The position numbers were made by a program, and so were the translations under genes. Below the pieces are notes generated by a model. It worked only from the letters and a program-made list of their open reading frames with translations, was not told the origin of the DNA and searched no databases. Positions 10,797 through 63,295 of a DNA stretch of 64,000 bases are shown here, piece by piece; within the stretch, counting starts at the first letter, position 1, and each line of letters starts with the position of its first letter. The DNA is from Liolophura sinensis (Eukaryota): positions 32,082,510 through 32,146,509 of the forward strand of contig NC_088295.1 of assembly GCF_032854445.1 (NCBI RefSeq), read 5' to 3'.

Positions 10797-10987
10797 GTGC
10801 TCTTACCTGGTTGTCAGCAGTAAGGAGAAGGCCCAGTCTTACAGGTGTCAGACAGCCAGCAAGTATGGCGTCCCCTGTTGTCCTCGTGAACTTCCTGCAG
10901 GACTCTGTCAAAGCTGGAAAACTTCAAGACTTTCGAAAATATCTTGTCATAAAAGAGGACTTAAAGATTTCAGACGATAAAATCAAA
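10797..10987 (+). CDS. PARP4: PARP4-like exon 2 (BRCT), with an apparent +1 frameshift at the cccc run 10871-10874
   Basis: Frame A: CSYLVVSSKEKAQSYRCQTASKYGVP. After removing one C: VVLVNFLQDSVKAGKLQDFRKYLVIKEDLKISDDKIKG. Together these align to human CTHIILDNADVLSQYQLNSIQKNHVHIANPDFIWKSIREKRLLDVKNY. Acceptor ttgacag|, donor aaag|gtttga. Confidence 0.75.
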
Positions 10988-17242: not shown

Positions 17243-18343
17243 GTAAGTCAGTTTTAAGGGTCGTGTGTCGAAAATTTGTATGTACATGTTTTTGATCTGG
17301 AATCAAGACATATGGTAAATGACCTAAAGTTTCGCCCTGGACTAGGAAAGTGTATCCCAGGATTCATTGCATTGGTTGTGGCTGTTAATGACTGAGCGCA
17401 GTGGGAGAACATCAGGGGTGGTCAGGGGATTATACTGACCGTACAAGAATGTAATAAACAAGTCCACGCTTCACTGAAGAGTTAGTCCATGTTCCTACCA
17501 CAAACATTTCATGTTTTCCTCAGCTTTAATCATAATAGTTTTAGTCCTCTGGCGACATGTTAATCACGTCTGGGGAACAACCATACACAGGAAATCATAA
17601 AAAATCTTGTTTATAAAGTTAGTGACGGTGTTGTGCCAACTCTAATGTGATAACTCAAACAAGTCCTGTCTCCTGATATGCCGGACTCGTACACAAGTGG
17701 TAAAAGTAAATCCTGGTAGTTTTCGAAAACCTTGCATGGAGTATGTTTTCTGTGTTTAATGGAGGTTCCCGATAAAAAAACACGGAAAAGGAACCTTTCT
17801 GCAATAGGATGACAATTCTGACTGTAAAGAAACAAAATGTGCGTGTAGACTGACATACGAAATTGGAATTACCTGGACACGAGAAGCTGCTAGTCAAGAA
17901 ACCTGCAAAACTTACTGTCAGTGACTTGACCCCATATAGTGAGGATTAGCAACCACAGCTGCTAAAAAGTGCCATTCAGAGGGTGAGGGATCTCTTCTCT
18001 CATTTTGCCGCTATCTCAGATTGTGCGGAAATAAACAACATTAACTCACGTGTGAAACTTCGTTTACTGTAGATGTTTTGTGTTATAAGGAGGGGCATGT
18101 CATATGATGCAGTTCAGCATGTGACATGTTGGAATACAGCCATGTCTTTGAGATGGATCTTTTTGGAATACTGTTCAAAGTGTATCCTTTTTTTTTGTCT
18201 TGTTTGTAAGACAAAAGCACTACATGTCTTGGAGAGGACTTGTATTCCACCAATGTGACTTGCATATCTGTTCCTCACACATGAGAAAGTTTAATTGTCA
18301 GTGACTTTCCGAGGGTTTATACCCCAGTTACATTGGTTTATTT

Positions 18344-18599
18344 ATTAGATTGGTGTTTTCCGCCCTACTCGAGGATATTTCACGTATACGATGGCGGCCA
18401 GCATTATGGTGGGAGGAAACCAGGCAGAACCCGGAGGAAACGCACAGTCATCTGTAGATTGCTGGCACACCTTCCCACTTACAAGCAAAGAGGAAACCAG
18501 CATGAGCTGGACTTGAACTCACAGCAACCATGTTGCTGAGAGGCAAGCTGCCCTTTAACCTGCCCTAACGTGCTAACCAACTGAGCTACGTAGGCCCCC
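18344..18599 (-). mobile_element. tRNA-derived SINE, full-length copy in intron 8
   Basis: Reverse complement begins 'gggggcctacgtagctcagttggttagcacgttagggcagg' (A-box tagctcagttgg) and contains B-box 'gagttcaagtcc', core 'cctcccaccataatgctggccgccatcgtatacgtgaaatatcctcgagtagg' and tail 'aacaccaatctaataaataaa'. Confidence 0.8.
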
Positions 18600-20874: not shown

Positions 20875-21454
20875 GTATGGGGTAATGTTCCATCAGCTCA
20901 CCCATCCATCATGTTTGCCATCATGCAAATATAAGGATTTTCTGCCTCTACGGTAGTTATTGAATGAACTTTTTGAAAAGCAGATATTTTGTATTCGTAT
21001 GGCATTTTGTTATTTCACTTAGGCCACACCAATTAAAATTTTTGTTTTGACAAGCTGAATAAATCTTCTCTCTATGTCGGAGGGTATGAAAATAAAACTG
21101 AAAAACCACCTACACTGTAGCTCATCACATTTGTGGTAACTGTGAACTGTCCCAACATATTTATGTGATCCGAAAGCCTAGGAAAACTATAAAATCACAA
21201 AAAACATTAAAGATTGTACAGAATAAAAAGTTGGGTTTTCAATTTTATTTTTATTTCGTTTTTGGATTTTCTGTTGTTGGCTTGCCTGTGAAACATAAAA
21301 TAAAATTGGTGTAGCCTGAACTCTAAGGAGGGACACACCAAAAGTGTCATGGAATTATTGAGCCACAGACTAGGGAAAACTGGATTTATTTTCATTCAGT
21401 ATAAAATTTCATATGTAATAAATGTATACCTAAATGTATTATAAAATTGTGGTG

Positions 21455-21655
21455 GTGGGGAGTGAGAGTCTCTCACCAATGCAGTCAATGTGAGTTCAAG
21501 TCCACTGTATGCTGGATTCTTCTTTGGCTTTATGTGGGAAGGTTTGCCAGCAACCTGCAAATGGTCGTGGATTTCCTCTGGGCTTGGTCATATAAGTGAA
21601 ATATTTTTAAGTACAGCATAAAACACCAATCAAAGAATTAAAATAAATACTATAA
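21455..21655 (+). mobile_element. SINE copy (5'-truncated) in intron 12
   Basis: 'ctcaccaatgcagtcaatgtgagttcaagtcc...' followed by tail 'gtgaaatatttttaagtacagcataaaacaccaatcaaagaat'. Confidence 0.6.
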
Positions 21656-28385: not shown

Positions 28386-28574
28386 GTAAATGAAGCAAAT
28401 TTATCGTCAGTGCACACACAACTGATCCTGTGTGAAATGTCATGTACATGTATTTTAGATTTGTGCTGGGACAGGCATTGAAGAAAGGGTTAAAACATCC
28501 TCCGTCTCACCACAATCATCCTCCCTCTTCCAATAAGCATGTGTGAAGTTTGCTCCCACTAGGGTTTAAATCAG

Positions 28575-28797
28575 GGGGTGTGTGAGGAACTCCACCAATG
28601 CAGTCGCTGTGAGTTCAAGTCCAGACGCTGGCTTCCTCTCCGGCCATACGTGGGAAGGTCAGGCAGCAACCATGGTCGTGGGTTTCCCGCGGGCTCTTCC
28701 CGGTTTCCTCCCACCATAATGCTGGCCACCGTCGTATAAGTCAAATATTCTTGAGTACGGTGTCAAATACCAGTCAAATAAATAAATAAATAAATCT
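28575..28797 (+). mobile_element. SINE copy in intron 22, followed at 28798-28888 by the tail of a second copy
   Basis: 'ccaatgcagtcgctgtgagttcaagtccag...cctcccaccataatgctggccaccgtcgtataagtcaaatattcttgagtacggtgtcaaataccagtcaaataaataaataaataaatc', then 'caaagtgaaacactcttgagtacagtgttgaacagcaatcaaataagtaaag'. Confidence 0.75.
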
Positions 28798-29224: not shown

Positions 29225-29305
29225 GCCACTTTGAAGGCTGTGGTGAACGGGGCAGAGATATCCACAGTGGTGTCATCCTCTCAACTCAGTAACACCAAAG
29301 GCACT
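29225..29305 (+). CDS. PARP4: PARP4-like exon 23
   Basis: ATLKAVVNGAEISTVVSSSQLSNTKGT, compare human ATLCALIQEKEFCTMVSTTELQKTTGT; donor act|gtgagt. Confidence 0.8.
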
Positions 29306-30135
29306 GTGAGTATCTGTATACTGTGAATAGTTAAATCAAAGGCACTGAGATCATCTGTATATTGTGAATAGTTAAATCAAAGGCACTGAGATCATCTGTA
29401 TATTGTGAATAGTTAAATCAAAGGCACTGAGATCATCTGTATATTGTGAATAGTTAAATTAAAGGCACTGAGAGCATCTTTACATTGTTAATAGTTAAAT
29501 TAAAGGCACTGTGAGCATCTGTACATTGTCAAAAGTTACACCAGAGGCACTGTGAGTATCTGTATACTGTGACTAGTAACACCAACGGCACTGAGTACAT
29601 CTGTATACTGTGAATAGTTAAATCAAAGGCACTGAGATCATCTGTATACTGTGAATAGCTAGACCAAAGGCACTGAGATCATCTTTTGTGAATAGTTAAA
29701 TTAAAGGCACTGAGAGCATCTTTACATTGTTAATAGTTAAATTAAAGGCACTGCGAGCATCTGTACATTTTCAAAAGTTACACCAGAGGCACTGTGAGTA
29801 TCTGTATACTGTGACTAGTAATCCTAAAGGCGCTGTTAGTATCTGTATACTGTGACTAGTAATCCTAAAGGCGCTGTTAGTATCTGTATACTGTGAGTAG
29901 CTACACCAATGGCACTGTTGGTATCTGTATACTGTGAAGAGCAACACCAAAGGCACTGTGAGTATCTTTATACTGTGAATAGTTGCACCAAAGGCACTGT
30001 TAGTATCTGTACACTGTGAAGAGCAACACCAAAGGCACTGTTGGTATCTATATACTGTGACTAGTAACACCAAAGGCACTGTTAGTATCTGTATACTGTG
30101 AAGAGCAACACCAAAGGCACTGTGAGTATCTGTAT
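29291..30135. repeat. Minisatellite, 41-bp unit x ~20, seeded from the exon-23 3' end plus 5' splice site
   Basis: The unit 'aaaggcactg(t)gag(t/a)atc(a)tctgtata(t/c)tgtgaatagttaaatc' starts inside exon 23. Several copies retain 'ggcactgtgagtatctg', which is the exon end plus GTGAGT donor. Confidence 0.9.
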
Positions 30136-30139: not shown

Positions 30140-33100
30140 TAAATACATGCACAGTGTGGTAAGATTTACATTGTACATGTATGGCACTGTGCAGTAGATG
30201 TAGGTACATGAACAGTAAGGCAGGTATGGTACTGTGCATTAGATGTAGGTACATGAACAGTAAGGCAGGTATGGCACTGTGCAGTAGATGTAGGTACATG
30301 TACAGTAAGGCAGGTATGGTACTGTGCATTAGATGTAGGTACATGAACAGTAAGGCAGGTATGGCACTGTGTTAGAAGTATGTACATGTACAGTCAGGTA
30401 TGGCACTGTGCGTTAGATGTAGATACATGTACAGTCAGGTATGGCACTGTGCATTAGATGTAGATACATGTACAGTCAGGTATGGCACTGTGCGTTAGAT
30501 GTAGGTACATGAACAGTAAGGCAGGTATGGCACTGTGCAGTAGATGTAGGTACATGTACAGTCAGGTATGGCACTGTGCATTAGATGTAGGTACATGAAC
30601 AGTCAGGTATGGCACTGTGTTAGATGTAGGTACATATACAGTCAGGTATGGCACTGTGTTAGATGTAGGTACATGTACAGTCAGGTATGGCACTGTGCAT
30701 TAGATGTAGGTACATGAACAGTAAGGCAGGTATGGCACTGTGCAGTAGATGTAGGTACATGAACAGTAAGGCAGGTATGGCACTGTGCAGTAGATGTAGG
30801 TACATGTACAGTAAGGCAGGTATGGTACTGTGCATTAGATGTAGGTACATGAACAGTAAGGCAGGTATGGCACTGTGTTAGAAGTATGTACATGTACAGT
30901 CAGGTATGGCACTGTGCGTTAGATGTAGATACATGTACAGTCAGGTATGGCACTGTGCATTAGATGTAGGTACATGAACAGTAAGGCAGGTATGGCACTG
31001 TGTTAGAAGTATGTACATGTACAGTCAGGTATGGCACTGTGCGTTAGATGTAGATACATGTACAGTCAGGTATGGCACTGTGCATTAGATGTAGGTACAT
31101 GTACAGTCAGGTATTGCACTGTGCATTAGATGTAGGTACATGTACAGTCAGGTATGGCACTGTGTTAGATGTAGGTACATGTACAGTCAGGTATGGCACT
31201 GTGTTAGATGTAGGTACATGTACAGTCAGGTATGGCACTGTGTTAGATGTAGGTACATGTACAGTCAGGTATGGCACTGTGCATTGGATGTAGATACATG
31301 TACAGTCAGGTATGGCACTGTGCATAAGATGTAGGTACATGTACAGTCAGGTATGGCACTGTGCATTAGATGTAGGTACATGAACAGTAAGGCAGGTATG
31401 GCACTGTGCAGTAGATGTAGGTACATGAACAGTAAGGCAGGTATGGCACTGTGCATTAGATGTAGGTACATGTACAGTCAGGTATGGCACTGTGCATAAG
31501 ATGTAGGTACATGTACAGTCAGGTATGGCACTGTGCATTAGATGTAGGTACATGAACAGTAAGGCAGGTATGGTACTGTGCAGTAGATGTAGGTACATGT
31601 ACAGTAAGGCAGGTATGGTACTGTGCAGTAGATGTAGGTACATGAACAGTAAGGCAGGTATGGCACTGTGTTAGAAGTATGTACATGTACAGTCAGGTAT
31701 GGTACTGTGCATTAGATGTAGGTACATGAACAGTCAGGTATGGCACTGTGCATTAGATGTAGGTACATATACAGTCAGGTATGGCACTGTGTTAGAAGTA
31801 GGTACATGTACAGTCAGGTATGGCACTGTGCGTTAGATGTAGATACATGTACAGTCAGGTATGGCACTGTGCATTAGATGTAGGTACATGAACAGTAAGG
31901 CAGGTATGGCACTGTGTTAGAAGTATGTACATGTACAGTCAGGTATGGCACTGTGCGTTAGATGTAGATACATGTACAGTCAGGTATGGTACTGTGCATT
32001 AGATGTAGGTACATGAACAGTAAGGCAGGTATGTCACTGTGCAGTAGATGTAGGTACATGTACAGTAAGGCAGGTATGGCACTGTGCAGTAGATGTAGGT
32101 ACATGTACAGTCAGGTATGGCACTGTGTTAGAAGTAGGTACATGTACAGTCAGGTATGGCACTGTGCGTTAGATGTAGGTACATGAACAGTAAGGCAGGT
32201 ATGGCACTGTGCAGTAGATGTAGGTACATATACAGTCAGGTATGGCACTGTGTTAGAAGTAGGTACATGTACAGTCAGGTATGGCACTGTGCGTTAGATG
32301 TAGATACATGTACAGTCAGGTATGGCACTGTGCGTTAGATGTAGGTACATGAACAGTAAGGCAGGTATGGCACTGTGTTAGAAGTATGTACATGTACAGT
32401 CAGGTATGGCACTGTGCGTTAGATGTAGATACATGTACAGTCAGGTATGGCACTGTGCATTAGATGTAGATACATGTACAGTCAGGTATGGCACTGTGCG
32501 TTAGATGTAGGTACATGAACAGTAAGGCAGGTATGGCACTGTGCAGTAGATGTAGGTACATGTACAGTCAGGTATGGCACTGTGCATTAGATGTAGGTAC
32601 ATGAACAGTCAGGTATGGCACTGTGTTAGATGTAGGTACATATACAGTCAGGTATGGCACTGTGTTAGATGTAGGTACATGTACAGTCAGGTATGGCACT
32701 GTGCATTAGATGTAGGTACATGAACAGTAAGGCAGGTATGGCACTGTGCAGTAGATGTAGGTACATGAACAGTAAGGCAGGTATGGCACTGTGCAGTAGA
32801 TGTAGGTACATGTACAGTAAGGCAGGTATGGTACTGTGCATTAGATGTAGGTACATGAACAGTAAGGCAGGTATGGCACTGTGTTAGAAGTATGTACATG
32901 TACAGTCAGGTATGGCACTGTGCGTTAGATGTAGATACATGTACAGTCAGGTATGGCACTGTGCAGTAGATGTAGGTACATGTACAGTCAGGTATGGCAC
33001 TGTGTTAGAAGTAGGTACATGTACAGTCAGGTATGGCACTGTGCGTTAGATGTAGGTACATGAACAGTAAGGCAGGTATGGCACTGTGCAGTAGATGTAG

Positions 33101-34850
33101 GTACATATACAGTCAGGTATGGCACTGTGTTAGAAGTAGGTACATGTACAGTCAGGTATGGCACTGTGCGTTAGATGTAGATACATGTACAGTCAGGTAT
33201 GGCACTGTGCATTAGATGTAGGTACATGAACAGTAAGGCAGGTATGGCACTGTGCAGTAGATGTAGGTACATGAACAGTAAGGCAGGTATGGTACTGTGC
33301 ATTAGATGTAGGTACATGTACAGTCAGGTATGGCACTGTGCATTAGATGTAGGTACATATACAGTCAGGTATGGCACTGTGTTAGAAGTAGGTACATGTA
33401 CAGTCAGGTATGGCACTGTGCGTTAGATGTAGATACATGTACAGTCAGGTATGGCACTGTGCATTAGATGTAGGTACATGAACAGTAAGGCAGGTATGGC
33501 ACTGTGCAGTAGATGTAGATACATGTACAGTCAGGTATGGCACTGTGCATTAGATGTAGGTACATGTACAGTCAGGTATGGCACTGTGCATTAGATGTAG
33601 GTACATGTACAGTCAGGTATGGCACTGTGCATTAGATGTAGGTACATGTACAGTCAGGTATGGCACTGTGCATTAGATGTAGGTACATGTACAGTCAGGT
33701 ATGGCCTGTGTTAGAAGTATGTACATGTACAGTCAGGTATGGCACTGTGCGTTAGATGTAGATACATGTACAGTCAGGTATGGCACTGTGCATTAGATGT
33801 AGGTACATGTACAGTCAGGTATTGCACTGTGCATTAGATGTAGGTACATGTACAGTCAGGTATGGCTTTGTGTTAGATGTAGGCACATGTACAGTCAGGT
33901 ATGGCACTGTGTTAGATGTAGGTACATATACAGTCAGGTATGGCACTGTGTTAGATGTAGGCACATGTACAGTCAGGTATGGCACTGTGTTAGATGTAGG
34001 TACATGTACAGTCAGGTATGGCACTGTGTTAGATGTAGGTACATGTACAGTCAGGTATGGCACTGTGTTAGATGTAGGTACATGTACAGTCAGGTATGGC
34101 ACTGTGCATTAGATGTAGGTACATGTACAGTCAGGTATGGCACTGTGCATTAGATGTAGGTACATGTACAGTCAGGTATGGCCTGTGTTAGAAGTATGTA
34201 CATGTACAGTCAGGTATGGCACTGTGCGTTAGATGTAGATACATGTACAGTCAGGTATGGCACTGTGCGTTAGATGTAGGTACATGAACAGTAAGGCAGG
34301 TATGGCACTGTGCGTTAGATGTAGATACATGTACAGTCAGGTATGGCACTGTGCATTAGATGTAGGTACATGTACAGTCAGGTATTGCACTGTGCATTAG
34401 ATGTAGGTACATGTACAGTCAGGTATGGCTTTGTGTTAGATGTAGGTACATGTACAGTCAGGTATGGCACTGTGTTAGATGTAGGTACATATACAGTCAG
34501 GTATGGCACTGTGTTAGATGTAGGCACATGTACAGTCAGGTATGGCACTGTGTTAGATGTAGGTACATGTACAGTCAGGTATGGCACTGTGTTAGATGTA
34601 GGTACATATACAGTCAGGTATGGCACTGTGTTAGATGTAGGTACATGTACAGTCAGGTATGGCACTGTGCATTAGATGTAGGTACATGAACAGTAAGGCA
34701 GGTATGGCACTGTGCATTAGATGTAGGTACATGTACAGTCAGGTATGGCACTGTGCATTAGATTTAGGTACATGTACAGTCAGGTATGGCACTGTGCATT
34801 AGATGTAGATACATGTACAGTCAGGTATTGTATAAAGTTCCACTCAGTTA
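30140..34850. repeat. Large minisatellite, 41-bp unit (48-bp variant) x >100, 4.7 kb, in intron 23
   Basis: 'ggtatggcactgtgcattagatgtaggtacatgtacagtca', with a variant inserting 'gaacagtaaggca'. Higher-order blocks are visible; the core 'ggcactgtg' is shared with the exon-23-derived array. Confidence 0.95.
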
Positions 34851-35195: not shown

Positions 35196-35276
35196 ATTGT
35201 TCACAAATTGACAGCCCGTGGTATTATTCGAGATTGGGAAGATGGCGTCTTGTCATTGGACAGAAACAAGCATGAG
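35196..35276 (+). CDS. PARP4: PARP4-like exon 24
   Basis: IVHKLTARGIIRDWEDGVLSLDRNKHE, compare human MIHKLAARALIRDYEDGILHENETSHE. Confidence 0.85.
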
Positions 35277-36250: not shown

Positions 36251-36346
36251 TGTAATGAGGATGTCTGATGTGTTCGGCATGACAATTCAGTGGTGGCAGT
36301 ATATGTACATACACCTTATGACTGCCCTCTTTGTCTTGTGTTGTAG

Positions 36347-37775
36347 GCTGATAGACTGGAGCTGAAGGAGTACATCATCAGGCTGAGTAAGGAGTACTCT
36401 ATTGTCACCCAGCTCACTGCCTTCTTTGTCTTGTGTTGTAGGCTTATAGACTGGAGCTGAAGGAGTACATCATCAGGCGGAGTAAGGAGTACTCTATTGT
36501 CACCCAGCTCACTACCTTCTTTCTCTTGTGTTGTAGGCTGATAGAGTGGAGCTGAAGGAGTACATCATCGGGCTGAGTAAGGAGTACTCTATTGTCACCC
36601 AGCTCACTACCTTCTTTGTCTTGTGTTGTAGGCTGATAGACTGGAGCTGAAGGAGTACATCATGAGGCTGAGTAAGGAGTACTCTATTGTCACCCAGCTC
36701 ACTACCTTCTTTATCTTGTGTTGTAGGCTTATAGACTGGAGCTGAAGTACATCATCAGGCGGAGTAAGGAGTACTCTGTTGTCACCCAGCTCACTACCTT
36801 CTTTGTCTTGTGTTGTAGGCTGATAGACTGGAGCTGAAAGAGTACATCATCAGGCTGAGTAAGGAGTACTCTGTTGTCACCCAGCTCACTACCTTCTTTG
36901 TCTTGTGTTGTAGGCTGATAGACTGGAGCTGAAAGAGTACATCATCAGGCTGAGTAAGGAGTACTCTATTGTCACCCAGCTCAATACCTTCTTTGTCTTG
37001 TGTTGTAGGCTGATAGACTGGAGCTGAAGGAGTACATCATCAGGCGGAGTAAGGAGTACTCTGTTGTCACCCAGTTCACTACCTTCTTTATCTTGTGTTG
37101 TAGGCTGATAGACTGGAGCTGAAGGAGTACATCATCAGGCTGAGTAAGGAGTACTCTATTGTCACCCAGCTCACTACCTTCTTTGTCTTGTGTTGTAGGC
37201 TGATAGAGTGGAGCTGAAGGAGTACATCATCAGGCTGAGTAAGGAGTACTCTATTGTCACCCAGCTCACTACCTTCTTTATCTTGTGTTGTAGGCTGATA
37301 GACTGGAGCTGAAGGAGTACATTATCGGGCTGAGTAAGGAGTACTCTATTGTCACCCAGCTCACTACCTTCTTTGTCTTGTGTTGTAGGCTGATAGACTG
37401 GAGCTGAAGGAGTACATCATCAGGCTGAGTAAGGAGTACTCTGTTGTCACCCAGCTCACTACCTTCTTTGTCTTGTGTTGTAGGCTGATAGACTGGAGCT
37501 GAAGGAGTACATTATCGGGCTGAGTAAGGAGTACTCTATTGTCACCCAGCTCACTACCTTCTTTGTCTTGTGTTGTAGGCTGATAGACTGGAGCTGAAGG
37601 AGTACATTATCGGGCTGAGTAAGGAGTACTCTATTGTCACCCAGCTCACTACCTTCTTTGTCTTGTGTTGTAGGCTTATAGACTGGAGCTGAAGGAGTAC
37701 ATCATCGGGCTGAGTAAGGAGTACTCTATTGTCACCCAGCTCACCAGCTTTGTGGCTGTGGAGGAGAGAGCAAAG
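36347..37775 (+). repeat. 95-bp tandem array x15, each unit = polypyrimidine tract + AG acceptor + first ~70 nt of exon 25. Only the last copy carries the authentic exon 3' end and donor.
   Basis: Unit 'gctgatagactggagctgaaggagtacatcatcaggctgagtaaggagtactctattgtcacccagctcactaccttctttgtcttgtgttgtag'. The final copy continues '...cagctcaccagctttgtggctgtggaggagagagcaaag|gtagga'. Confidence 0.9.
37674..37775 (+). CDS. PARP4: PARP4-like exon 25 (the one complete copy)
   Basis: AYRLELKEYIIGLSKEYSIVTQLTSFVAVEERAK, compare human QTLKSLIIKLSKENSLITQFTSFVAVEKRDENE; acceptor ttgtag|, donor aag|gtagga. Confidence 0.75.
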
Positions 37776-38091: not shown

Positions 38092-38190
38092 GATGAGGCC
38101 AAAAGTGTGACGTCAGATGCTCAAATGGAGGAGCTTATTCAGGCAGAAGATGTGGATGATCTGTCCTACATAGGGTGGGAAAGATCTCCG
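38092..38190 (+). CDS. PARP4: PARP4-like exon 26
   Basis: DEAKSVTSDAQMEELIQAEDVDDLSYIGWERSP, compare human SPFPDIPKVSELIAKEDVDFLPYMSWQGEPQ. Confidence 0.75.
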
Positions 38191-42954: not shown

Positions 42955-45215
42955 ATATGGTGACACATCACATGTATGAACTTGTATTCATATGTGTTAT
43001 ATACGAGACCTGTGCGAAACCTTCATAGCTAATGTATTCTTCTGTCATGTCTGTACACCATATTCTCTTGTTCTACCTTCACATCCTGTGTGCCACATTG
43101 TATGAACTTGTATTTATATGTGTTATATACGAGACCTGTGCGAAACCTTCATAGATAATGTATTCTTCTGTCATGTCTGTACACCATATTCTCTTGTTTT
43201 ACCTTCACGTGCTGTGTGCCAGATTGTATGAACTTGTATTCATATATGTTATGTACGAGACCTGTGCAAAACCTTCATAGATAATGTATTCTTCTGTCAT
43301 GTCTGTACACCATATTCTCTTGTTCTACCTTCACATGCTGTGTGCCAGATTGTATGAGCTTGTATTCATATGTGTTATGTATGAGACCTGTGCGAAACCT
43401 TCAGAGATAATGTATTCTTCTGTCATGTATGTACACCATATTCTCTTGTCCTACCTTCACATGCTGTTTGCCAGGTTGTATGAGCTTGTATTCATATGTG
43501 TTATGTATGAGACCTGTGCGAAACCTTCAGAGATAATGCATTCTTCTGTCATGTATGTACACCATATTCTCTTGTCCTACCTTCACATGCTGTGTGCCAG
43601 GTTGTATGAGCTTGTATTCATATGTGTTATGTATGAGACCTGTGCGAAACCTTCAGAGATAATGTATTCTTCTGTCATGTATGTACACCATATTCTCTTG
43701 TTCTACCTTCACGTGCTGTGTGCCAGATTGTATGAACTTGTATTCATATGTGTTATGTATGAGACCTGTGCGAAACCTTCAGAGATAATGTATTCTTCTG
43801 TCATGTATGTACACCATATTCTCTTGTTCTACCTTCACATGCTGTGTGCCAGGTTGTATGCACTTATATTTATATAGTATGTCAGATTGCATGGACTTGT
43901 ATTTGAATGTGTTATGTAGATGGCATATTCTCTTGTTCATGCATCACATGCTGTATGCCAGATTGCATTTACATGTATTTGTATGCGTTATATAAGCTGT
44001 GAGAACTGTACATGTAGGAAACTCACAGATGATGTAATTGTTCATTTAATTGTTCTAGATTACAGATTGGGAGGAGCTGGTGATGGAGATGACAAAGGTA
44101 ACTCATCGTCATCAAGTGAGGATGAGGACTACGCTCCAATACCTGATATATATAGTGAAGGTGACATTCTACATTACATGTTCTGCCATTCCTCTATGCC
44201 TCTAGATGAGATAAATATAATTATGTGTATGCATGGGCTCTTTCACTCATGGACAGGCCTAAGTCCAGCAAATAAGTTTAAACAATGGACAGGAATGACA
44301 ATTCTGCAAACACAGCATTTATTTTATTTTCCATCAAAAGTTTGACAATTATGTTCAAGCCTGCTGGCCTTCATCCTGAGAAACATTTTGTCAGTGACGA
44401 GACAGACAGTAGCAGCTAGCTATGTCGTCATCCTCCTGATATATAGACAGTGTACGGGACATAGTGGCCAGCTATGTTGGTGACATCCTCCTGATGTATA
44501 GACAGTGTACGTGACATAGCGGCCAACTATGTTCTTAGCATCCTCCTGATATATAGACAGTGTAGGGGACATAGCGGCTAACTATGTTGTTGGCATCCTC
44601 CTGATGTATAGACAGTGTATGGGACATAGAGGCTAACTATGTTGTTGGCATCCTCCCGATGTATAGACAGTGTACGGGACATAGCGGCCAACTATGTTGT
44701 TGGCATCCTCCTGATGTGTAGACAGTGTACGGGACATAGTGGCTAACTATGTTGTTGGCATCCTCCTGATGTATAGACAGTGTACGGGACATAGAGGCTA
44801 ACTATGTTGTTGGCATCCTCCCGATGTATAGACAGTGTACGGGACATAGAGGTTAACTATGTTGTTGGCATCCTCCTGTGGTATAGACAGTGTACGGGAC
44901 ATAGAGGCCAACTATGTTGTTGGCATCCTCCTGATGTATAGACAGTGTACGGGACATAGAGGCTAACTATGTTGTTGGCATCCTCCCGATGTATAGACAG
45001 TGTACGGGACATACAGGCTAACTATGTTGTTGACATCCTCCTGATGTATAGACAGTGTACGGGACATAGCGGCCAACTATGTTGTTGGCATCCTCCTGAT
45101 GTATAGACAGTGTACGGGACATAGAGGCCAACTATGTTGTTGACATCCTCCTGATGTATAGACAGTGTACGGGACGTAGAGGCTAACTATGTTGTTGACA
45201 TCCTCCTGATGTATG
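42955..45215 (+). repeat. Segmental block copy 1: 123-bp array (42955-43870) + ~480-bp unique segment + 57-bp array (44395-45215)
   Basis: 123-bp unit 'gtattcatatgtgttatgtacgagacctgtgcgaaaccttcatagctaatgtattcttctgtcatgtctgtacaccatattctcttgttctaccttcacatgctgtgtgccagattgtatgaactt'. 57-bp unit 'ggacatagcggccaactatgttgttgacatcctcctgatgtatagacagtgtacg'. Confidence 0.9.
44059..44097 (+). CDS. PARP4: Candidate PARP4 C-terminal micro-exon (copy 1 of 3)
   Basis: ITDWEELVMEMTK between ttctag| and aag|gtaact, compare human PARP4 C-terminal AVPWTELLSLQTEDG. Identical or near-identical copies at 47895-47933 and 51255-51293. Confidence 0.25.
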
Positions 45216-45349: not shown

Positions 45350-46980
45350 AACTTTTATCATATACCTATGCGTGTTACCCGCCTGATACAGAGCCCCCTG
45401 ATATTTTTTCGTATCACCATCCTCTGAACATTTTGCGCGCGCGAAACTACTTTTGCACCGAGTGACCTTTCCCTGGGAAAGCCCTGCGGTCCTTGACAGG
45501 GATTTCCATGCAGACCTGACCTACTTACACGAACATGCAACTTATTCTCCCTAAATTTAAGACCCAGAAAAACTAATAAAAATTTTTCTACACTGTCTAC
45601 ATGCCAACATTATGGGCAAAAAGGTTATAATCAAATATTTTCGTCATTTTATTGTGTCATCTGCTATGTGATTTTTGGTGTCAAATTACATTCCGCCACG
45701 CTGATAGCTGTCGATGTCAAACTATATGAAAGTCCGGTAGAGGCGTACAAAGTCTACAAGGACCACAGGCCACCAAAAATGTGAACAGCCGACAATCCAT
45801 TTTACCTCGGCATCGATTACAAAAGAAAAGTTTGCAGCAATGTATGGTACAAATGCCAACCAATGGGAGAGCACACCCTAAAATCAATTATGAAAACCAT
45901 GGCAAAACGATCGAACTTACCTGGCCATTTTACAAACCACAGTGCCCGCAAAACAACATGTAACCGTCTCCATCATGCTGGCGTAGCTCCCGCAACTATC
46001 ATGCAACTCACTGGTCACAAAAATATTGCAAGTATGAATAATTACGCTGTTTTTTTCTCATAGTATGCAGGAAAAGATGAGCCACATCATTTCAAATGCA
46101 CCAAATGTCACAAAGCCTTTCGCTGCGAGCGTAACTCTTTCTCCCCAACCCAGTACATCCACAAAAATTGATGCAGCTGTCCCATCATCTTCTACAGTAC
46201 AGAATGATCTGTTTGTTTCACAGAATTTCACACACAATGTAAACCATGCCACCAGAACATGTACAACTACCGGTATTTTCCAGGGTGCATCCTTTTCAAA
46301 TTGCACGTTCCACCTCAATTTCTGCCACGGATCAGCTGCTCATTAACTTTGTTGACAAACTCTTTCAAGAACTCACAGAGACTTCAGCAAATTTATAGAA
46401 CTTTCAGTCATCCACATGCAATTAAATCACTTCTTCACTTCTAAAATTGGTGGTTGACCTGATTTAGCGCACTTTACAGCTGCTATAATCAATTTCAAAA
46501 TGCCACTTGTCAGGTTTGAGATGATGTTTATATAAACGTTACAGTTCTTGCATTCAGATAGCATCTGTGTTTTTCGAAAAGCCAGCTATACTTACTTGAT
46601 GTTGTATAAATAATATTTCCACGGTTTTTTGAGTCTTTGTTTTATTTTATTTTCTTTATTTTCATATTTTTTTTTTTACCCAATGTTTGTGTCTTCAGCG
46701 GTGGTCAACTATTTTGAAATATGCTATATTTAGAACGAAATCCATGTGCGCGTCACAGTTTGTGAGCATTATGACGGCCTGTGCACTGCCAGACACTATA
46801 CCCTAAGCAAAGTAGTCTGAAGAAATATCTGCACTTTATGACCCCCAAAGTAGTGTCAATAGAAGGTATATGATAAGTAGATTATCATCACACTGTGCTG
46901 ATCTGCATCATCCTATCTGCTCTCGTTCTCTGCGGTTGCGTTGCCGTATCGACCGAGCCCTGTGGGCGACGATTCAGATC
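45350..46980 (+). mobile_element. 1.6-kb insertion, absent from the block 2/3 junction, carrying a Crypton/DUF3504-type tyrosine-recombinase remnant
   Basis: The connector 45205-45350 is identical to 50335-50480, which in copy 2 runs straight into the 123-bp array. Here 1.6 kb of unrelated, GC-richer sequence intervenes. Confidence 0.55.
45781..46063 (+). pseudogene. Tyrosine recombinase C-terminal domain (Crypton/DUF3504-like), frameshifted
   Basis: ORF 45863..46063 '...SNLPGHFTNHSARKTTCNRLHHAGVAPATIMQLTGHKNIASMNNYA' matches the YR/DUF3504 motif (TNHS.R.T..T.L...GV....I...TGH+S......Y). The upstream ORF 45781..45963 overlaps in another frame. Confidence 0.55.
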
Positions 46981-50340: not shown

Positions 50341-50409
50341 TGTGTGGGGATCTGTGATAATAAGGGATTAACAGCATTGTTCGTGCAATCTAATGTTCGC
50401 TGATGTATT

Positions 50410-52905
50410 TTTCTGTCATGTCTGTACACCATAATTCTCTTGTTCTACTTTCACATGCTGCGTGCCAGATTGTATGAACTTGTATTCATATGTGTTATGT
50501 ACGAGACCTGTGCGAAACCTTCATAGCTAATGTATTCTTCTGTCATGTCTGTACACCATATTCTCTTGTTTTACCTTCACATGCTGTGTGCCAGATTGTA
50601 TGAAGTTGTATTCATATGTGTTATGTACGAGACCTGTGTGAAACCTTCATAGCTAATGTATTCTTCTGTCATGTCTGTACACCATATTCTCTTGTTTTAC
50701 CTTCACATGCTGTGTGCCAGATTGTATGAAGTTGTATTCATATGTGTTATGTACGAGACCTGTGCGAAACCTTCATAGCTAATGTATTCTTCTGTCATGT
50801 CTGTACACCATATTCTCTTGTTTTACCTTCACATGCTGTGTGCCAAATTGTATGAACTTGTATTCATATGTGTTATGTACGAGACCTGTGCAAAACCTTC
50901 ATAGCTAATGTATTCTTCTGTCATGTCTGTACACCATATTCTCTTGTTCTACCTTCACATGCTGTGTGCCAGATTGTATGAGCTTGTATTTATATAAGTT
51001 GCGTATCCTCCAGTATACCCCATTATCTGGTTCTACCTTCATATGCAGTGTGTCAGGTTGCATGGACTTGTATTTGTATGTGTTATGTAGGAACTGTAGA
51101 AAACTTTTAAAGAAGATGGCATATTCTCTTGTTCATGCATCACATGCTGTATGCCAGATTGCTTTTACATGTATTTGTATGCGTTATATAAGCTGTGAGA
51201 ACTGTACATGTAGGAAACTCACAGATGATGTAATTGTTCATTTAATTGTTCTAGATTACGGATTGGGAGGAGCTGGTGATGGAGATGACAAAGGTAACTC
51301 ATCGTCATCAAGTGAGGATGAGGACTACGCTCCAATAACTGATATACATGGTGACTGTGACATTCTACATGACATGTTCTGCCTTTCCTCTATGCCTCTA
51401 GGTAAGATAAATATAATTATGTGTATGCATGGGCTCTTTCACTCATTGACAGGCCTAAGTCCAGCAAATAAGAAGTCTAAACAATGGACAGGAATGACAA
51501 TTCTGCAAACACAGCATTTATTTTATTTTCCATCAAAATTTTGACAATCATATCCAAGCCTGCTGGCCTTCATCCTGAGCAACATGTTGTCAGTGACGAG
51601 ACATACAGTAGCAGCTAGCTATGTCGTTGTCATCCTCCTGATATATAGACGGTGTACGGGACATAGTGGCCAACTATGTTGTTGACATCCTCCTGATGTA
51701 TAGACAGTGTACGGGACATAGCAGCCAACTATGTTGGTGACATCCTCCTGATGTATAGACAGTGTACGGGACATAGCGGCCAACTATGTTGTTGACATCC
51801 TCCTGATATATAGACAGTATACGGGACAGCGGCTAACTATGTTGTTGGCATCCTCCTGATGTATAGACAGTGTACGGGACATAGCGGCCAACTATGTTGT
51901 TGGCATCCTCCTGATGTATAGACAGTGTACGGGACATAGCAGCCAACTATGTTGTTGACATCCTCCTGATGTATAGACAGTGTACGGGACATAGCAGCCA
52001 ACTATGTTGGTGACATCCTCCTGATGTATAGACAGTGTACGGGACATAGCGGCTAACTATGTTGTTGACATCCTCCTGATGTATAGACAGTATACGGGAC
52101 AGCGGCTAACTATGTTGTTGGCGTCCTCCTGATGTATAGACAGTGTACAGGACATAGAGGCCAACTATGTTGTTGGCATCCTCCTTATGTATAGACAGTG
52201 TACGGGACATAGAGGCTAACTATGTTGGTGACATCCTCCTGATGTATAGACAGTGTACGGGACATAGTGGCCAACTATGTTGTTGGCATCCTCCCGATGT
52301 ATAGACAGTGTACGGGACATAGAGGCCAACTATGTTGTTGACATCCTCCTGATGTATAGACAGTGTACGGGACATAGCGGCCAACTATGTTGTTGGCATC
52401 CTCCTGATGTATAGACAGTGTACGGGACATAGCGGCCAACTATGTTGTTGACATCCTCCTGATGTATAGACAGTGTACGGGACATAGCGGCTAACTATGT
52501 TGTTGGCATCCTCCCGATGTATAGACACTGTATGGGACATATCGGCTAACTATGTTGTTGGCATCCTCCCGATGTATAGACAGTGTACGGGACATAGCGG
52601 CTAACTATGTTGTTGGCATCCTCCCGATGTATAGACAGTGTACGGGACATATCGGCTAACTATGTTGTTGGCATCCTCCCGATGTATAGACAGTGTACGG
52701 GACATAGCGGCTAACTATGTTGTTGACATCCTCCCGATGTATAGACACTGTACGGGACATATCGGCTAACTATGTTGTTGGCATCCTCCTGATGTATAGA
52801 CAGTGTACGGGACATAGCGGCTAACTATGTTGTTGACATCCCCCCAATGTATAGACAGTGTACGGGACATAGCGGCTAACTATGTTGTTGGCATCCTCCC
52901 GATGT
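50410..52905 (+). repeat. Segmental block copy 3: 123-bp array (50410-50990) + unique segment + 57-bp array (51575-52905)
   Basis: Same architecture; directly tandem to copy 2. Confidence 0.9.
51255..51293 (+). CDS. PARP4: Candidate micro-exon copy 3 (ITDWEELVMEMTK)
   Basis: ctag|attacggattgggaggagctggtgatggagatgacaaag|gtaact. Confidence 0.25.
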
Positions 52906-53641
52906 ATAGACAGTGTTCAGAGTGCATATACTGCTGCTTACTGCTGTAACTTCTTGTGTAGCGCTTACCACCTTGTTAGCTACAACTCCTGTTTACGGTT
53001 TATGCCTGTCCATCTGTTGTTAGCTTTATTTCCCATCTCAAAACTCTCAGTTGAAATCTTCAAGCAAGAACTTACTTCAGGCAATGTGTGAAACTCACCC
53101 AACAACTATACAGTTTGAAGATATAGCAATCCGCAGATGAGAGTTAAATGTTTACCTAATAAGCCTGTTCTTTATGATTCCATTTTTACATGATGCTCAT
53201 TGTATAAATAGTCCAAGAAGGTGACTGTGTCTAGTGGTGAGCCCCTCGTTCAGTCCAGAAACGCAATTGCTCCAAATATATTTAAAGAGAGTATATCGGT
53301 GAATTTTGGTGGAAAATAGATCGGTAAAAATCTGTCTGTTTGCCATTGTTTTGGAATAATCAAAATGATTACCTTTCACAAAATATTAGCCGTGTTTGCG
53401 AATGTCCTTATCACTGTGTATAGTTTAGGTATGAGTCGAATACTTACTGAAAGACAATGATGTGAGCTATTCTTGGTAAATAGAGTGATCTGATGGTGAA
53501 TATGGATTTTTCCTCCAAAAGTCTCCGGTATAGATTCTCTAAGAAAAAGCTTCCACATTTGGTGCACATGTTTTCCTTGAAGAACAGTTCTTCTGAAACA
53601 CATTATTTTAATTTTAACACTTAATATTGAATGTCTGACAG

Positions 53642-57430: not shown

Positions 57431-57467
57431 ACTTACTGATTAAAAGTCTGTGAAAAGGTATGGCATG

Positions 57468-57660
57468 TTGTTTGTTTCTATTTGATTGGTGTTTTACACC
57501 GTTCTCAAGAATATTTCACTTATTCCACAGTGGCCAGCATTATGGTGGGAGGAAACCAGTCAGAGCCCAGCAGACCAACCCGTGACCATCAGCAGGTTGC
57601 TGCAGACTTTCTCATATGTGGCCTGAGAGGAAGCCAGCATGATCTGGACCTAGCCACCGG
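57468..57660 (-). mobile_element. SINE copy (tail + core), with an oppositely oriented partial copy at 57768-57856
   Basis: 'tttgattggtgttttacaccgttctcaagaatatttcacttattccacagtggccagcattatggtgggaggaaaccag...'. Downstream, 'ttttcctcccaacataatgctgcccttgtataagtgaaatattcttgagtatggcg' lies in + orientation. Confidence 0.65.
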
Positions 57661-57879
57661 TACTATATTAACTGTTGTCTATATACATTGTATTTTTGAA
57701 AACAAAATCTGTTAAGCTTGTATTAATGCCAGTACACGTACCCCCAATAGTCATCTTCTGTTTCACCTAGCCTCTGCCCATTTTCCTCCCAACATAATGC
57801 TGCCCTTGTATAAGTGAAATATTCTTGAGTATGGCGAAAAACATCAGTCAAAGAAATATGTATATCTGCATGTTTACAT

Positions 57880-60800
57880 TAAGGTCATGCTGCAGGATAT
57901 TCACCATTATTGCCAAATAGGGTTATAGGTGTGAAAAAAGCGTCTACCTTGTGGGCGGCGAAGCGTAACCTACATACATGTACATTTGTACAGTAGGGTG
58001 GCAGGATATTCACCATCATTGCCAAATAGGGTTATAGGTGTGAAAAAAGCGTCTACCGTGTGGGCGGCGAAGCGTAACCTACATACATGTACATTTGTAC
58101 AGTAGGGTGGCAGGATATTCACCATCATTGCCAAATAGGGTTACAGGTGTGAAAAAAGCATCTACCTTGTGGGCGGTGAAGCGTAACCTACTTACATGTA
58201 CATTTGTACAGTAGGATGGCAGGATATTCACCATTATTGCCAAATAGGGTTATAGGTGTGAAAAAAGTGTCTACCTTGTGGGCGGCGAAGCGTAACCTAC
58301 ATACATGTACATTTGTACAGTAGGATGGCAGGATATTCACCATCATTGCCAAATAGGGTTATAGGTGTGAAAAAAGCGTCTACCTTGTGGGCGGCGAAGC
58401 GTAACCTACATACATGTACATTTGTACAGTAGGATGGCAGGATATTCACCATCATTGCCAAATAGGGTTATAGGTGTGAAAAAAGCGTCTACCTTGTGGG
58501 CGGCGAAGCGTAACCTACTTACATGTACATTTGTACAGTAGGATGGCAGGATATTCACCATCATTGCCAAATAGGGTTATAGGTGTGAAAAAAGCGTCTA
58601 CCTTGTGGGCGGCGAAGCGTAACCTACTTACATGTACATTTGTACAGTAGGATGGCAGGATATTCACCATCATTGCCAAATAGGGTTATAGGTGTGAAAA
58701 AAGCGTCTACCTTGTGGGCGGCGAAGCGTAACCTACTTACATGTACATTTGTACAGTAGGATGGCAGAATATTCACCATCATTGCCAAATAGGGTTATAG
58801 GTGTGAAAAAAGTGTCTACCTTGTGGGCGGCGAAGCGTAACCTACATACATGTACATTTGTACAGTAGGATGGCAGAATATTCACCATCATTGCCAAATA
58901 GGGTTATAGGTGTGAAAAAAGCGTCTACCTTGTGGGCGGCGAAGCGTAACCTACTTACATGTACATTTGTACAGTAGGATGGCAGGATATTCACCATCAT
59001 TGCCAAATAGGGTTATAGGTGTGAAAAAAGTGTCTACCTTGTGGGCGGCGAAACGTAACCTACATACATGTACATTTGTACAGTAGGATGGCAGGATATT
59101 CACCATCATTGCCAAATAGGGTTATAGGTGTGAAAAAAGCGTCTACCTTGTGGGCGGCGAAGCGTAACCTACTTACATGTACATTTGTACAGTAGGATGG
59201 CAGGATATTCACCATTATTGCCAAATAGGGTTATAGGTGTGAAAAAAGTGTCTACCTTGTGGGCGGCGAAACGTAACCTACATACATGTACATTTGTACA
59301 GTAGGATGGCAGGATATTCACCATCATTGCCAAATAGGGTTATAGGTGTGAAAAAAGCGTCTACCTTGTGGGCGGCGAAACGTAACCTACTTACATGTAC
59401 ATTTGTACAGTAGGATGGCAGGATATTCACCATCATTGCCAAATAGGGTTATAGGTGTGAAAAAAGCATCTACCTTGTGGGCGGCGAAACGTAATCTACT
59501 TACATGTACATTTGTACAGTAGGATGGCAGGATATTCACCATCATTGCCAAATAGGGTTATAGGTGTGAAAAAAGCGTCTACCTTGTGGGCGGCGAAACG
59601 TAACCTACTTACATGTACATTTGTACAGTAGGATGGCAGGATATTCACCATCATTGCCAAATAGGGTTATAGGTGTGAAAAAAGCGTCTACCTTGTGGGC
59701 GGCGAAACGTAACCTACTTACATGTACATTTGTACAGTAGGATGGCAGGATATTCACCATCATTGCCAAATAGGGTTATAGGTGTGAAAAAAGCGTCTAC
59801 CTTGTGGGCGGCGAAACGTAACCTACTTACATGTACATTTGTACAGTAGGATGGCAGGATATTCACCATCATTGCCAAATAGGGTTATAGGTGTGAAAAA
59901 AGCGTCTACCTTGTGGGCGGCGAAACGTAACCTACTTACATGTACATTTGTACAGTAGGATGGCAGGATATTCACCATCATTGCCAAATAGGGTTATAGG
60001 TGTGAAAAAAGTGTCTACCTTGTGGGCGGCGAAACGTAACCTACGTACATGTACATTTGTACAGTAGGATGGCAGGATATTCACCATCATTGCCAAATAG
60101 GGTTATAGGTGTGAAAAAAGTGTCTACCTTGTGGGCGGCGAAACGTAACCTACTTACATGTACATTTGTACAGTAGGATGGCAGGATATTCACCATCATT
60201 GCCAAATAGGGTTATAGGTGTGAAAAAAGCGTCTACCTTGTGGGCGGCGAAACGTAACCTACATACATGTACATTTGTACAGTAGGTTGGCAGGATATTC
60301 ACCATCATTGCCAAATAGGGTTACAGGTGTGAAAAAAGCATCTACCTTGTGGGCGGTGAAGCGTAACCTACTTACATGTACATTTGTACAGTAGGATGGC
60401 AGGATATTCACCATTATTGCCAAATAGGGTTATAGGTGTGAAAAAAGCGTCTACCTTGTGGGCGGCGAAGCGTAACCTACTTACATGTACATTTGTACAG
60501 TAGGATGGCAGGATATTGCCAAGTAGGGTTATTGGTGTGAAAAAAAAGTGTCTACCTTGTGGGCGGCGAAACGTAACCTACATACATGTACATTTGTACA
60601 GTAGGATGGCAGAATATTCACCATCATTGCCAAATAGGGTTATAGGTGTGAAAAAAGCGTCTACCTTGTGGGCGGCGAAGCGTAACTTACATACATGTAC
60701 ATTTGTACAGTAGGATGGCAGGATATTCACCATCATTGCCAAATAGGGTTATAGGTGTGAAAAAAGTGTCTACCTTGTGGGCGGCGAAGCGTAACTTACA

Positions 60801-61310
60801 TACATGTACATTTGTACAGTAGGATGGCAGGATATTCACCATCATTGCCAAATAGGGTTATAGGTGTGAAAAAAGCGTCTACCTTGTGGGCGGCGAAGCG
60901 TAACCTACATACATGTACATTTGTACAGTAGGATGGCAGGATATTGCAAAGTTGGGTTATAGGTGTGAAAAAAAGCGTCTACCTTGTGGGCTGTGAAGCG
61001 TCTACCTTGTGGGCTGTGAAGCGTCTACCTTGTGGGCTGTGAAGCATAACCTACATACATGTACATTTGTACAGTAGGATGGCAGGATATTCACCATCAT
61101 TGCCAAATAGGGTTATAGGTGTGAAAAAAGCGTCTACCTTGTGGGCGGCGAAGCGTAACCTACATACATGTACATTTGTACAGTAGGTTGGCAGGATATT
61201 GCAAAGTTGGGTTATAGGTGTGAAAAAAAGCGTCTACCTTGTGGGCTGTGAAGCGTCTACCTTGTGGGCTGTGAAGCATAACCTACATACATCTACATTT
61301 GTACAGTAGG
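57880..61310. repeat. Minisatellite, 109-bp unit x ~31 (3.4 kb), immediately upstream of the proline-rich exon
   Basis: 'ggcaggatattcaccatcattgccaaatagggttataggtgtgaaaaaagcgtctaccttgtgggcggcgaagcgtaacctacttacatgtacatttgtacagtaggat' reiterated. Degenerate at the 3' end (61000-61300). Confidence 0.95.
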
Positions 61311-61691
61311 ATGGCAGGATACTTTTTCAGCATTTTCAGATTATTCAGATGTATACATGGAGAACAGCATACAGTGTGTCAGTATTTGAGTGGTTTGAGG
61401 TCTTGTTCTAGCTTTGTTCAGCTTCCATACAACCTGGTTGATGCTGTACATATTAATATTGCCAATGTAACACACCTAAAAATTCAGTATCCAAGTCAGT
61501 TAATTTCATCAGGGAGGTTTTGAAAACTGAGTGTAGGTGGTTTTTGGTGATGTGACTTTTATTTTGTCTCCCTAATGGCCAAACCTATAATATGTTCAAA
61601 CTTCCATCCACCTCAGTGTGGAATCATTTGTGATTCAAGTTTTAATCATGCACAAGTCATATGTAGGACACTTTGATTTTGTGTTTTGCAG

Positions 61692-62816
61692 ATCATGAGC
61701 AGAAGAAATATGCAATATCAAAGAAAGAAAGCAGTTCATCCAGATCAAATTTTAAGGAAAGACTACAGAAAAGGGCAATAAGCACCAGGTTTGCAGATTC
61801 CAGAGAAGAGAAGCATCTGATGACAGGACAATTGGTGGACTCTTCAGCAGATAAACCATCTGCTCTAATTCCTGACAAAAACAGAGAAATACCACTCCAT
61901 GAAAAGATTGTTGAAAAACCAAAAAAGAAAATAAAAGATCTATCCGGATCAGTATTCATTCCTCTTTGCGGAAGGATGTCTTCTCCAATAAAACAAGTAG
62001 GAAAATCACCACCACCCAGCAGATTTGGAAGATCACCACCTCCACCACCACCTAGCCGATTTGAACAAGGACCACCTCCACCACCACCTAGCAGATTTGA
62101 ACCAGTTCCACCTCCACTACCTCCCAGGAGATTTAGAACAGTACCACGTCCACCACCACCTGGCAAACTTGGATCAGTACTACCGCCCCCACCGCCCAGT
62201 AAATATGGATCAGTACCACCTCCCCCACTGCCCAGTAAATCTGGATCAGTACCACCTCCCCCACCACCGAGTAGATCAGTACCACCTCCCCCACTGCCCA
62301 GTAAATCTGGATCAGTACCACCTCCCCCACTGCCCATTAAATGTGGATCAGTACCACCTCCCCCACCACCCAGTAGATCAGTGCCCCCTACCCCACCGCC
62401 CAGTAAATCTGGATCAGTAACACCTCTACTATCTACCAGTAAGATTGATTCAGCAATACCATCACCTCCACCTCCTAGCAGATTTGGATCAGCACCACCT
62501 CCTCCACCTCCTAGCAAATTTGAATCAGCACCACCTCCTCCACCTCCTAGCAAATTTGAATCAGCACCACCTCCTCCACCTCCTAGCAAAGTTAGACCAG
62601 CCCGGCTTTCCACTTTTCACAGGAGATCTCGTGAACGCAAGTCAAATGTTGTATTTCCATGTGGAAAACAATATATGCTTCAGGGGCATGCAGCTGTCTC
62701 CTCAGAACACTATTCAGAATGTGCTGAATCATTAGTTCACAGGAAGGAGTTTGGAGATGTAGTTCAGACAGTATTCCCTGGGGCAGAGGCTGTGCTTGAT
62801 AAAATGGCAGTGATAG
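61692..62816 (+). CDS. Large proline-rich exon (FH1-like poly-Pro repeats), 375 aa; gene affiliation unresolved
   Basis: ttttgcag| acceptor at 61691, donor atag|gtaaat at 62817. About 17 repeats of [GS]xPPPPPPS[KR][FSY]G. Flanked by a basic/acidic N-segment (KKESSSSRSNFKERLQKR) and a C-segment ...CGKQYMLQGHAAVSSEHYSECAESLVHRKEFGDVVQTVFPGAEAVLDKMAVI. Confidence 0.55.
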
Positions 62817-63295
62817 GTAAATACTTGGTCACACATGTTTTTCGTGCTGTTTCATCGATTTTGAAGGAACTTATGGCCATTCTCTCCTGTTATAGTTTTG
62901 AACAGTTTTCAGAACAATTTTTTTTTTGTGCAAAGTATTTTAACAGTTATTTTTAGCTCAGTTCTATGAAGTAAGGAAAGGTATTGTAAAGGGTGGGGCA
63001 GGTGGGAAGGGTCAGTGTTGGTTAAACTTTTTTAGCTCCATAGTATATGGAATGGTATGTAAATGTACCTGCTCAGATGGAAGGTTAAGCATTTTTTTAA
63101 TACAGCAATAGAAACTGTGTTACCCCCTTAACAAAGATACATGTCATGTGTATACAGGAATCTCCTCTGTCCTTCTGTCTTTAGACATGATTATGTCCAT
63201 ACATCTCCTCCCTAACTACTCAGCTAATTTTGAAGAAACTTACCATACATCTTGCCTACCATCTAAACTTGTGCATGCTTATAAAGCTTAATTAT

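Follow-up and report, generated by a model that had tools for sequence, protein, structure and literature searches.

A PARP4 orthologue and the features around it

The window (the whole 64,000-nt stretch of DNA that was analysed) contains on its forward strand the first 26 exons of a PARP4 gene, in which two splice junctions are reiterated as tandem arrays, one of 95-bp units at the acceptor of exon 25 and one of 41-bp units at the donor of exon 23 (Table 1). Our rebuilt model of these 26 exons has GT-AG boundaries at all junctions, compatible phases and one open frame of 1236 aa, which requires the removal of a single C at positions 10872-10875 in exon 2, and the gene is extended downstream beyond exon 26. 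The assignment to PARP4, already made in an earlier note on this DNA, is upheld both by the order of the Pfam domains (BRCT_2, 1.7e-8; PARP_reg, 8.4e-8; PARP, 9e-26; VIT, 2.2e-37; VWA_3, 2.2e-17) and by a colinear match of the stretch from the VIT domain to exon 26 with human PARP4 (chain 11jf_P; query 9-621 versus residues 607-1215, E = 4.8e-158), the next-best solved chains being ITIH4 and ITIH1 at about 1e-13.

Exon 25 aligns without insertion with MKKQTLKSLIIKLSKENSLITQFTSFVAVEKRDE of the human protein (PARP4 residues 1149-1182, approximately), and the brachiopod, crinoid and annelid relatives of PARP4, which are about 50% identical to a 364-aa query, likewise possess the segment that is repeated here only once. 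The gene is therefore an orthologue of PARP4, and a single copy of the segment, as in the human and invertebrate alignments, represents the conserved coding state. When a large protein collection was searched, the 364-aa query returned no relative closer than about 50% identity and no model from the same species, and a 67-aa query composed of exons 25 and 26 returned no match.

Table 1. Features of the window, with positions counted from its first letter. Outside square brackets a slash marks a splice, unit or motif boundary.
Feature	Position	Strand	Basis or remark
GPCR-like open frame	16-270	-	truncated by the window edge
Short interspersed element	~2147-2401, 18285-18536, 21405-21596, 28563-28736, 57440-57712	both	similar translated strings
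PARP4 orthologue, first 26 exons (BRCT, PARP_reg, PARP, VIT, vWA)	10273-38190	+	gene model, Pfam, human PARP4
Donor-side mirage, 41 bp x 21 units	29294-30135	+	TRF, unit register
4.6-kb satellite, 41 bp x 112	30179-34828		most of intron 23
Exon 24, 81 nt, IVHKLTARGIIRDWEDGVLSLDRNKHE	35196-35276	+	phase 0; to be spliced to one of the 15 acceptors
Acceptor-side mirage minisatellite, 95 bp x 15	36321-37744	+	TRF, register of copies, motif search
Copies 1-14, pseudo-acceptors and pseudo-exon starts	36321-37647	+	intronic (intron 24) when splicing is to the last acceptor
First of 15 A/GTAAGG donor-like sites, 40 nt into each unit	36386-36392	+	PWM, stops
Authentic exon 25, 102 nt, AYRLELKEYIIGLSKEYSIVTQLTSFVAVEERAK	37674-37775	+	sole open frame, homology, AG/GT boundaries, phase 0
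AC microhomology, right array edge	37743-37744	+	unit starts AC/T..., exon continues AC/CAGCTTTGTGG
Exon 26, 99 nt, DEAKSVTSDAQMEELIQAEDVDDLSYIGWERSP	38092-38190	+	gene model, human PARP4 alignment
Triplicated block	42973-45214, 47003-~49000, 50399-52916		92-95% identity
Crypton-like remnant	45497-46343	+	frameshifted
109-bp satellite, then 255-bp higher-order units	57892-61277		28 copies, 96% alike
427-aa ORF	61673-62956	+	proline-rich coding repeat at 62009-62590

In exon 2, which encodes the BRCT domain, the CCCC at 10872-10875 must be read as CCC, and as assembled the frame stops at a TAA; this could be an assembly error in a homopolymer or else a true null allele. A gene that is in frame only after such a correction might be a decaying pseudogene, in which arrays of splice sites would be tolerated since correct splicing had become irrelevant. 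Set against this single lesion are the other 25 exons, all of them open, and all 25 introns with GT-AG ends and compatible phases. In addition, Pfam gives good scores to the VIT and vWA domains and to the context of the catalytic H-Y-E, the VIT-vWA region matches human PARP4 over 613 residues with the E-value given above, and the coding copy of the 95-bp repeat is free of variants at conserved residues. We therefore hold a pseudogene to be very unlikely. The junctions of exons 4/5 and 20/21, once suspected of being out of phase and hence a hint of a pseudogene, close cleanly in the DNA and were dropped as candidates.

The surroundings of the gene are rich in repeats, with tandem repeats comprising 36.6% of the window. 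Downstream of exon 26, a block made of a 126-bp array, about 0.6 kb of unique sequence and a 55-bp array occurs three times, the unique part containing an acidic exon-like ORF (...SSSSSEDEDYAPIPDIYSEGDIL). Further on is an ORF of 427 aa whose coding repeat is built of PPPPPPSK/RFGS units with a period of 36 bp. It may represent a large exon of the PARP4 gene farther downstream; searches for a relative of solved structure and for an exact match in public assemblies both came back empty. The Crypton-like remnant combines a tyrosine recombinase with DUF3504 (...NHSARKTTCNRLHHAGVAPATIMQLTGHKNIASMNNY), and its relatives, which carry PF00589 and PF12012, were found among metagenome proteins only. 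At the left end of the window the GPCR-like frame (...LDCLIALKYPLRYPLIMTKGKIRLAMGCIWTVAVLIGFIPVF) would belong to a neighbouring gene on the opposite strand. The short interspersed element, recognised in both orientations by the similar translated strings ...IMVGGNQ.EP... and ...SQCEFKS..., probably represents a SINE. No intact tRNA was detected in the window by ARAGORN, and an Rfam search gave 0 matches.

An array of reiterated acceptors

TRF reports the acceptor-side repeat as a single array with a period of 95, 15.0 copies, 96% matches, hardly any indels and a score of 2603. Every unit consists of the last 26 nt of intron 24, i.e. the polypyrimidine tract and AG (cttctttgtcttgtgttgtag, followed across the boundary by GCT[G/T]ATAGA), and of the first 69 nt of exon 25, which encode A[D/Y]RLELKEYII[R/G]LSKEYS[I/V]VTQL. 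Anchoring of the copies on the junction motif places the pseudo-exon starts of copies 1-14 at 36347, 36442, 36537, 36632, 36727, 36819, 36914, 37009, 37104, 37199, 37294, 37389, 37484 and 37579, and the exon start of copy 15 at 37674. The spacing is 95 bp throughout with one exception of 92 bp, a GAG codon being missing from copy 5. A 30-nt junction pattern was matched 15 times, in all cases within the array, and not once in 100 shuffles.

The exon part of copy 15 is the first 69 nt of authentic exon 25, and in this copy alone the sequence continues past the repeat into ...TSFVAVEERAK/gtagga (DNA ACCAGCTTTGTGGCTGTGGAGGAGAGAGCAAAG/gtaggaac), that is, through the remainder of the exon to a GT donor. 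Beyond the 2-bp AC at the array edges there is a looser CTTTGT...TGTG similarity. These results agree with the earlier note in its description of 15 diverged 95-bp copies derived from an intron/exon junction, in its numbering of the exon (the 25th of the rebuilt model) and in its claim that only the last copy has a donor. The span that it gave, on the other hand, covers the DNA between the start of the first pseudo-exon and the end of the real exon but leaves out the beginning of the repeat, which lies 26 nt earlier, at 36321.

Minisatellites that span an exon-intron boundary have been called 'mirages', a name that goes back to those of the lancelet Adh3 gene (Canestro et al. 2002, as cited in PMC3087553). 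The 95-bp array has a head-to-tail unit of minisatellite size, a reiterated boundary, and an edge copy that is the only one contiguous with coding exon; in structure, then, it is a mirage, and hence of a kind that is known and has had a name since 2002.

Our genomic evidence on the array comes from one haplotype and one window, and the 1-bp frameshift in exon 2 implies that errors of sequence or copy number may be present in the assembly. Could the array itself, or its copy number, be an artefact? At least one homopolymer indel, that of exon 2, is likely in the assembly, and a mirage is described as 'aberrantly assembled' in the draft of a lancelet genome (PMC3087553). Collapse or expansion during assembly would not, however, produce 13 variable positions and an indel distributed as a mosaic, and the period is exact, the flanks are unique, an array of 1.4 kb fits within a single long read, and similar arrays occupy 37% of the window. 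An assembly artefact is, to our minds, very unlikely.

Splice signals and reading frames

Scoring of each AG by a splice-site model, as the earlier note had advised, was performed with position weight matrices (PWMs) trained on the junctions of the PARP4 gene itself, the donor matrix being built from 26 sites only. All 15 array acceptors score between 8.6 and 10.0 bits, as compared with a mean of 6.2 for the real acceptors of the gene (sd 3.6, leave-one-out) and a 99th percentile of 8.6 bits for intronic AGs. Since all 15 score alike, sequence alone cannot separate the real site from the decoys. Copies 2-15 do not possess the native branch-point-like CTTAT (at -29) and have instead a CTCAC at -26, a putative branch point that exon-derived sequence forms where two units meet.

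The acceptors differ in what follows them. Joining exon 24 to any one of acceptors 1-14 gives ...TQLTTFFVLCCRLIDWS and then a stop (TGA) after 37 codons, and an open frame from exon 24 is obtained through acceptor 15 only; the 14 upstream copies are, as had been claimed, decoys with no partner donor. Two further uses of the repeat were considered and rejected: coding use on either strand, for which the longest stop-free stretches are 37 aa (+) and 81 aa (-), and recursive splicing, given that each array AG is followed by GC and not GT.

With regard to the cryptic GTAAGG donors proposed in the earlier note, the motif is indeed present in every copy, but its scores of -5.5 or -3.4 bits fall below those of all 26 real donors (0.7-11.6 bits), mainly because the exonic AG is missing, and they are indicative only, as the training set is small and the lack of this AG is heavily penalised. 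The last GTAAGG site of the array (37713/4) falls inside authentic exon 25, where its use as a donor would destroy the conserved TSFVAVE segment, and this weighs more heavily against the proposal than the scores do.

The further suggestion of exon reiteration, by which multiple units would be spliced as coding exons to give PARP4 isoforms with a repeated peptide, could appeal to the acceptor and the GTAAGG motif present in each unit. The 95-nt unit is not a multiple of 3, however, and read-through meets a TGA; the 40-nt micro-exons that the GTAAGG sites define shift the frame and run into a TGA in the second copy; no GT at an in-frame offset was found within the 95-bp units; and the segment is single in the orthologues. 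Exon reiteration is thereby refuted at the sequence level, and we would give it next to no chance.

A second array at the donor of exon 23

Two exons upstream of the 95-bp array lies a donor-side counterpart, so that exon 24 has decoy arrays on both sides. Its 41-bp unit comprises the last 13 nt or so of exon 23, the 5' splice site and about 27 nt of intron 23, and the first unit is the real junction of exon 23 (29225-29305; ...AACACCAAAGGCACT/gtgagtatctgtatactgtgaatagttaa). The GT is kept in 11 of the 20 downstream copies and lost in 9 (GAGATC), and four of the 20 are identical to the real donor, ACT/GTGAGT. With 85% identity among its units, this array is by that measure older than the 95-bp array.

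Most of intron 23 is taken up by the 4.6-kb satellite, which also has 104 GG[CT]ACT/GT sites. It shares with the donor-side mirage the 41-bp period and a 9-mer core (GGCACTGTG), a similarity equalled by 7 of 500 shuffles; this faintly hints that the two may have arisen together from the exon-23 junction.

A systematic search found reiteration at exactly 2 of the 51 junctions in the gene. With founder units of the six arrays in the gene span placed at random, approximately 0.91 junction-spanning arrays are expected versus the 2 observed (P(>=2) = 0.23), and the presence of two arrays therefore needs only a high local birth rate of minisatellites.

The position of exon 24 between decoys invites a functional reading, in which decoy acceptors, and with them the donor copies that follow exon 23, would act as a splicing throttle that diverts transcripts to nonsense-mediated decay, PARP4 output being set by array length, or the inclusion of exon 24 being regulated. 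In keeping with such a role, the decoy acceptors match the real one in strength, a premature stop lies behind each of them, exon 24 has arrays on either side, and its 81 nt preserve the frame if it is skipped. Yet aberrant mRNAs were not detectable by RT-PCR in published mirages, the pseudo-donors of the human F7 gene (see below) are silent, two junction-spanning arrays are near the chance expectation, and constraint on the copies is not seen. We regard a throttle as quite improbable.

Evolution of the copies

The 95-bp copies differ at 13 variable columns and by one 3-bp deletion, with a mean pairwise difference of 3.8%. The intron part has a diversity of 0.037 and the exon part one of 0.039, and seven of the nine exon-part variants are nonsynonymous (the other two synonymous), not counting one codon deletion. 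L13R, found in decoy copies 2, 5 and 8, alters a residue that is invariant across the orthologues, whereas the changes of the coding copy (D>Y and R>G) are at positions that vary among orthologues. The equal diversity of the two parts, the excess of nonsynonymous variants and L13R argue that the decoys are drifting in the manner of non-coding DNA, with signs of constraint in the last copy alone.

Non-adjacent copies have variants in common in a mosaic fashion, no difference separates copies 13 and 14, and adjacent copies differ from one another as much (3.4) as distant ones (3.2-3.4). Copy 1, and in part copy 2, retains private ancestral intron bases. Such a mosaic together with divergent edge copies is typical of minisatellite turnover, and would be the trace of repeated unequal exchange.

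The Y and G of the coding copy also occur in decoy copies. Although speculative, and in our estimation unlikely, it is conceivable that decoy copies exchange sequence with the coding copy and that unequal exchange may place any unit last. If this were true, the decoy variants D/Y, L/V, I/M, R/G, L/R, I/V and L/F and the loss of a Glu could reach codons 1-23 of exon 25, and this segment of PARP4 would be unusually polymorphic.

Proposed origin and consequences

Taken together, we consider it likely (with a probability of roughly 80%) that the array is a tolerated, probably neutral mirage minisatellite, and that productive mRNA is made via the last acceptor. The anatomy, the identity of the gene, the frame consequences, the equal strength of the acceptors and the freedom of the copies from coding constraint were computed here; how the array was founded, that its last acceptor is the one used and that it is neutral are what we infer.

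In the origin that we propose, a 95-bp segment made up of 26 nt of intron and 69 nt of exon would have been tandemly duplicated at the 2-bp AC microhomology, either by slippage or by microhomology-mediated duplication, which would fit the similarity of the edges. Amplification to 15 copies and partial homogenisation, by unequal exchange or slippage, would have followed in genomic surroundings exceptionally rich in intronic minisatellites. The array sets 14 additional acceptors of the same strength ahead of the real one. Productive PARP4 mRNA requires that exon 24 be joined to the acceptor at 37674, which is most likely selected by exon definition, as it alone has a GT donor within 102 nt, while transcripts from any upstream acceptor would contain the premature TGA and become targets for nonsense-mediated decay. 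The array is most likely without adaptive function, a tolerated by-product of minisatellite turnover.

The array is a large natural case of 15 acceptors with the same branch-point-like motif, polypyrimidine tract, AG and first 69 exon bases. Should PARP4 be expressed normally, the spliceosome would have to skip 14 perfect acceptors that are transcribed earlier, and such skipping, if true, would favour downstream context (exon definition) over first-come or 5'->3' scanning. Along with the donor-side array, the locus would also be a natural 15-fold test of 3' splice-site choice in a setting where sequence gives no guidance. There is a lesson for annotation as well, in that boundary arrays in minisatellite-rich genomes may mislead gene predictors or be mis-assembled.

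Comparison with known systems

The array reveals no new kind of element. Besides Adh3, mirages are carried by the lancelet globin genes BflGb6 and BflGb9 (PMC3087553) and by TnC and PGBD5 (PMC3902484); for all cases named so far the host is a cephalochordate. Published mirages occur at 5' and 3' exon boundaries alike, with units of 10-160 bp, and their genes give normal mRNA by RT-PCR and show length instability and concerted evolution (PMC3087553, PMC3902484). In BflGb6 the 3-6 units, each of 150-160 bp, run from the 3' end of an intron into the beginning of exon 2 (PMC3087553). The 95-bp unit of PARP4 spans a boundary and reiterates a splice signal in the same manner, with exactly the layout of BflGb6; both types of boundary are affected here, by one array each; the units of 95 and 41 bp are within the range of 10-160 bp; and the divergent edge copies may reflect a similar concerted evolution. 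Different from the lancelet mirages are the host gene, which is new, and the nature of the evidence, which here is genomic sequence alone, as are the copy numbers of 15 and 21 in place of the 3-6 of BflGb6. If the host is not a lancelet, the two arrays would be the first reported pair of mirages beyond the cephalochordates.

The 41-bp array after exon 23 has a direct match in intron 7 of human F7, where the junction of exon 7 with intron 7 lies inside the first unit of a 37-bp VNTR (Borensztajn et al. 2006, PMC1557585), just as that of exon 23 does here, with pseudo-donors following it. The F7 repeat presents 5-9 identical donors of which only the most upstream is used, by 5'->3' scanning (PMC1557585). 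In contrast to F7, with its reiterated donor and productive first copy, the 95-bp array reiterates the acceptor, and its productive site would be the last of 15, so that the scanning logic of F7 cannot explain the choice made there; if the upstream copies are skipped as proposed, the array would be the mirror image of F7. In experiments with duplicated acceptors, as cited in PMC1557585, the 'proximal' copy was used in one laboratory and the opposite was found in another, and use of the 15th among identical acceptors is therefore not trivially expected.

Lastly, the array may be compared with the gain of introns by tandem duplication of a segment containing AG/GT (the Rogers model; Hellsten et al. 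2011, PMC3265369). Both involve a tandem duplication within a gene that doubles splice signals, the extra copy being removed as intron. In the Rogers model, however, the duplication is exonic and yields a new intron, whereas the 95-bp array lengthens an existing intron and creates no new intron position.
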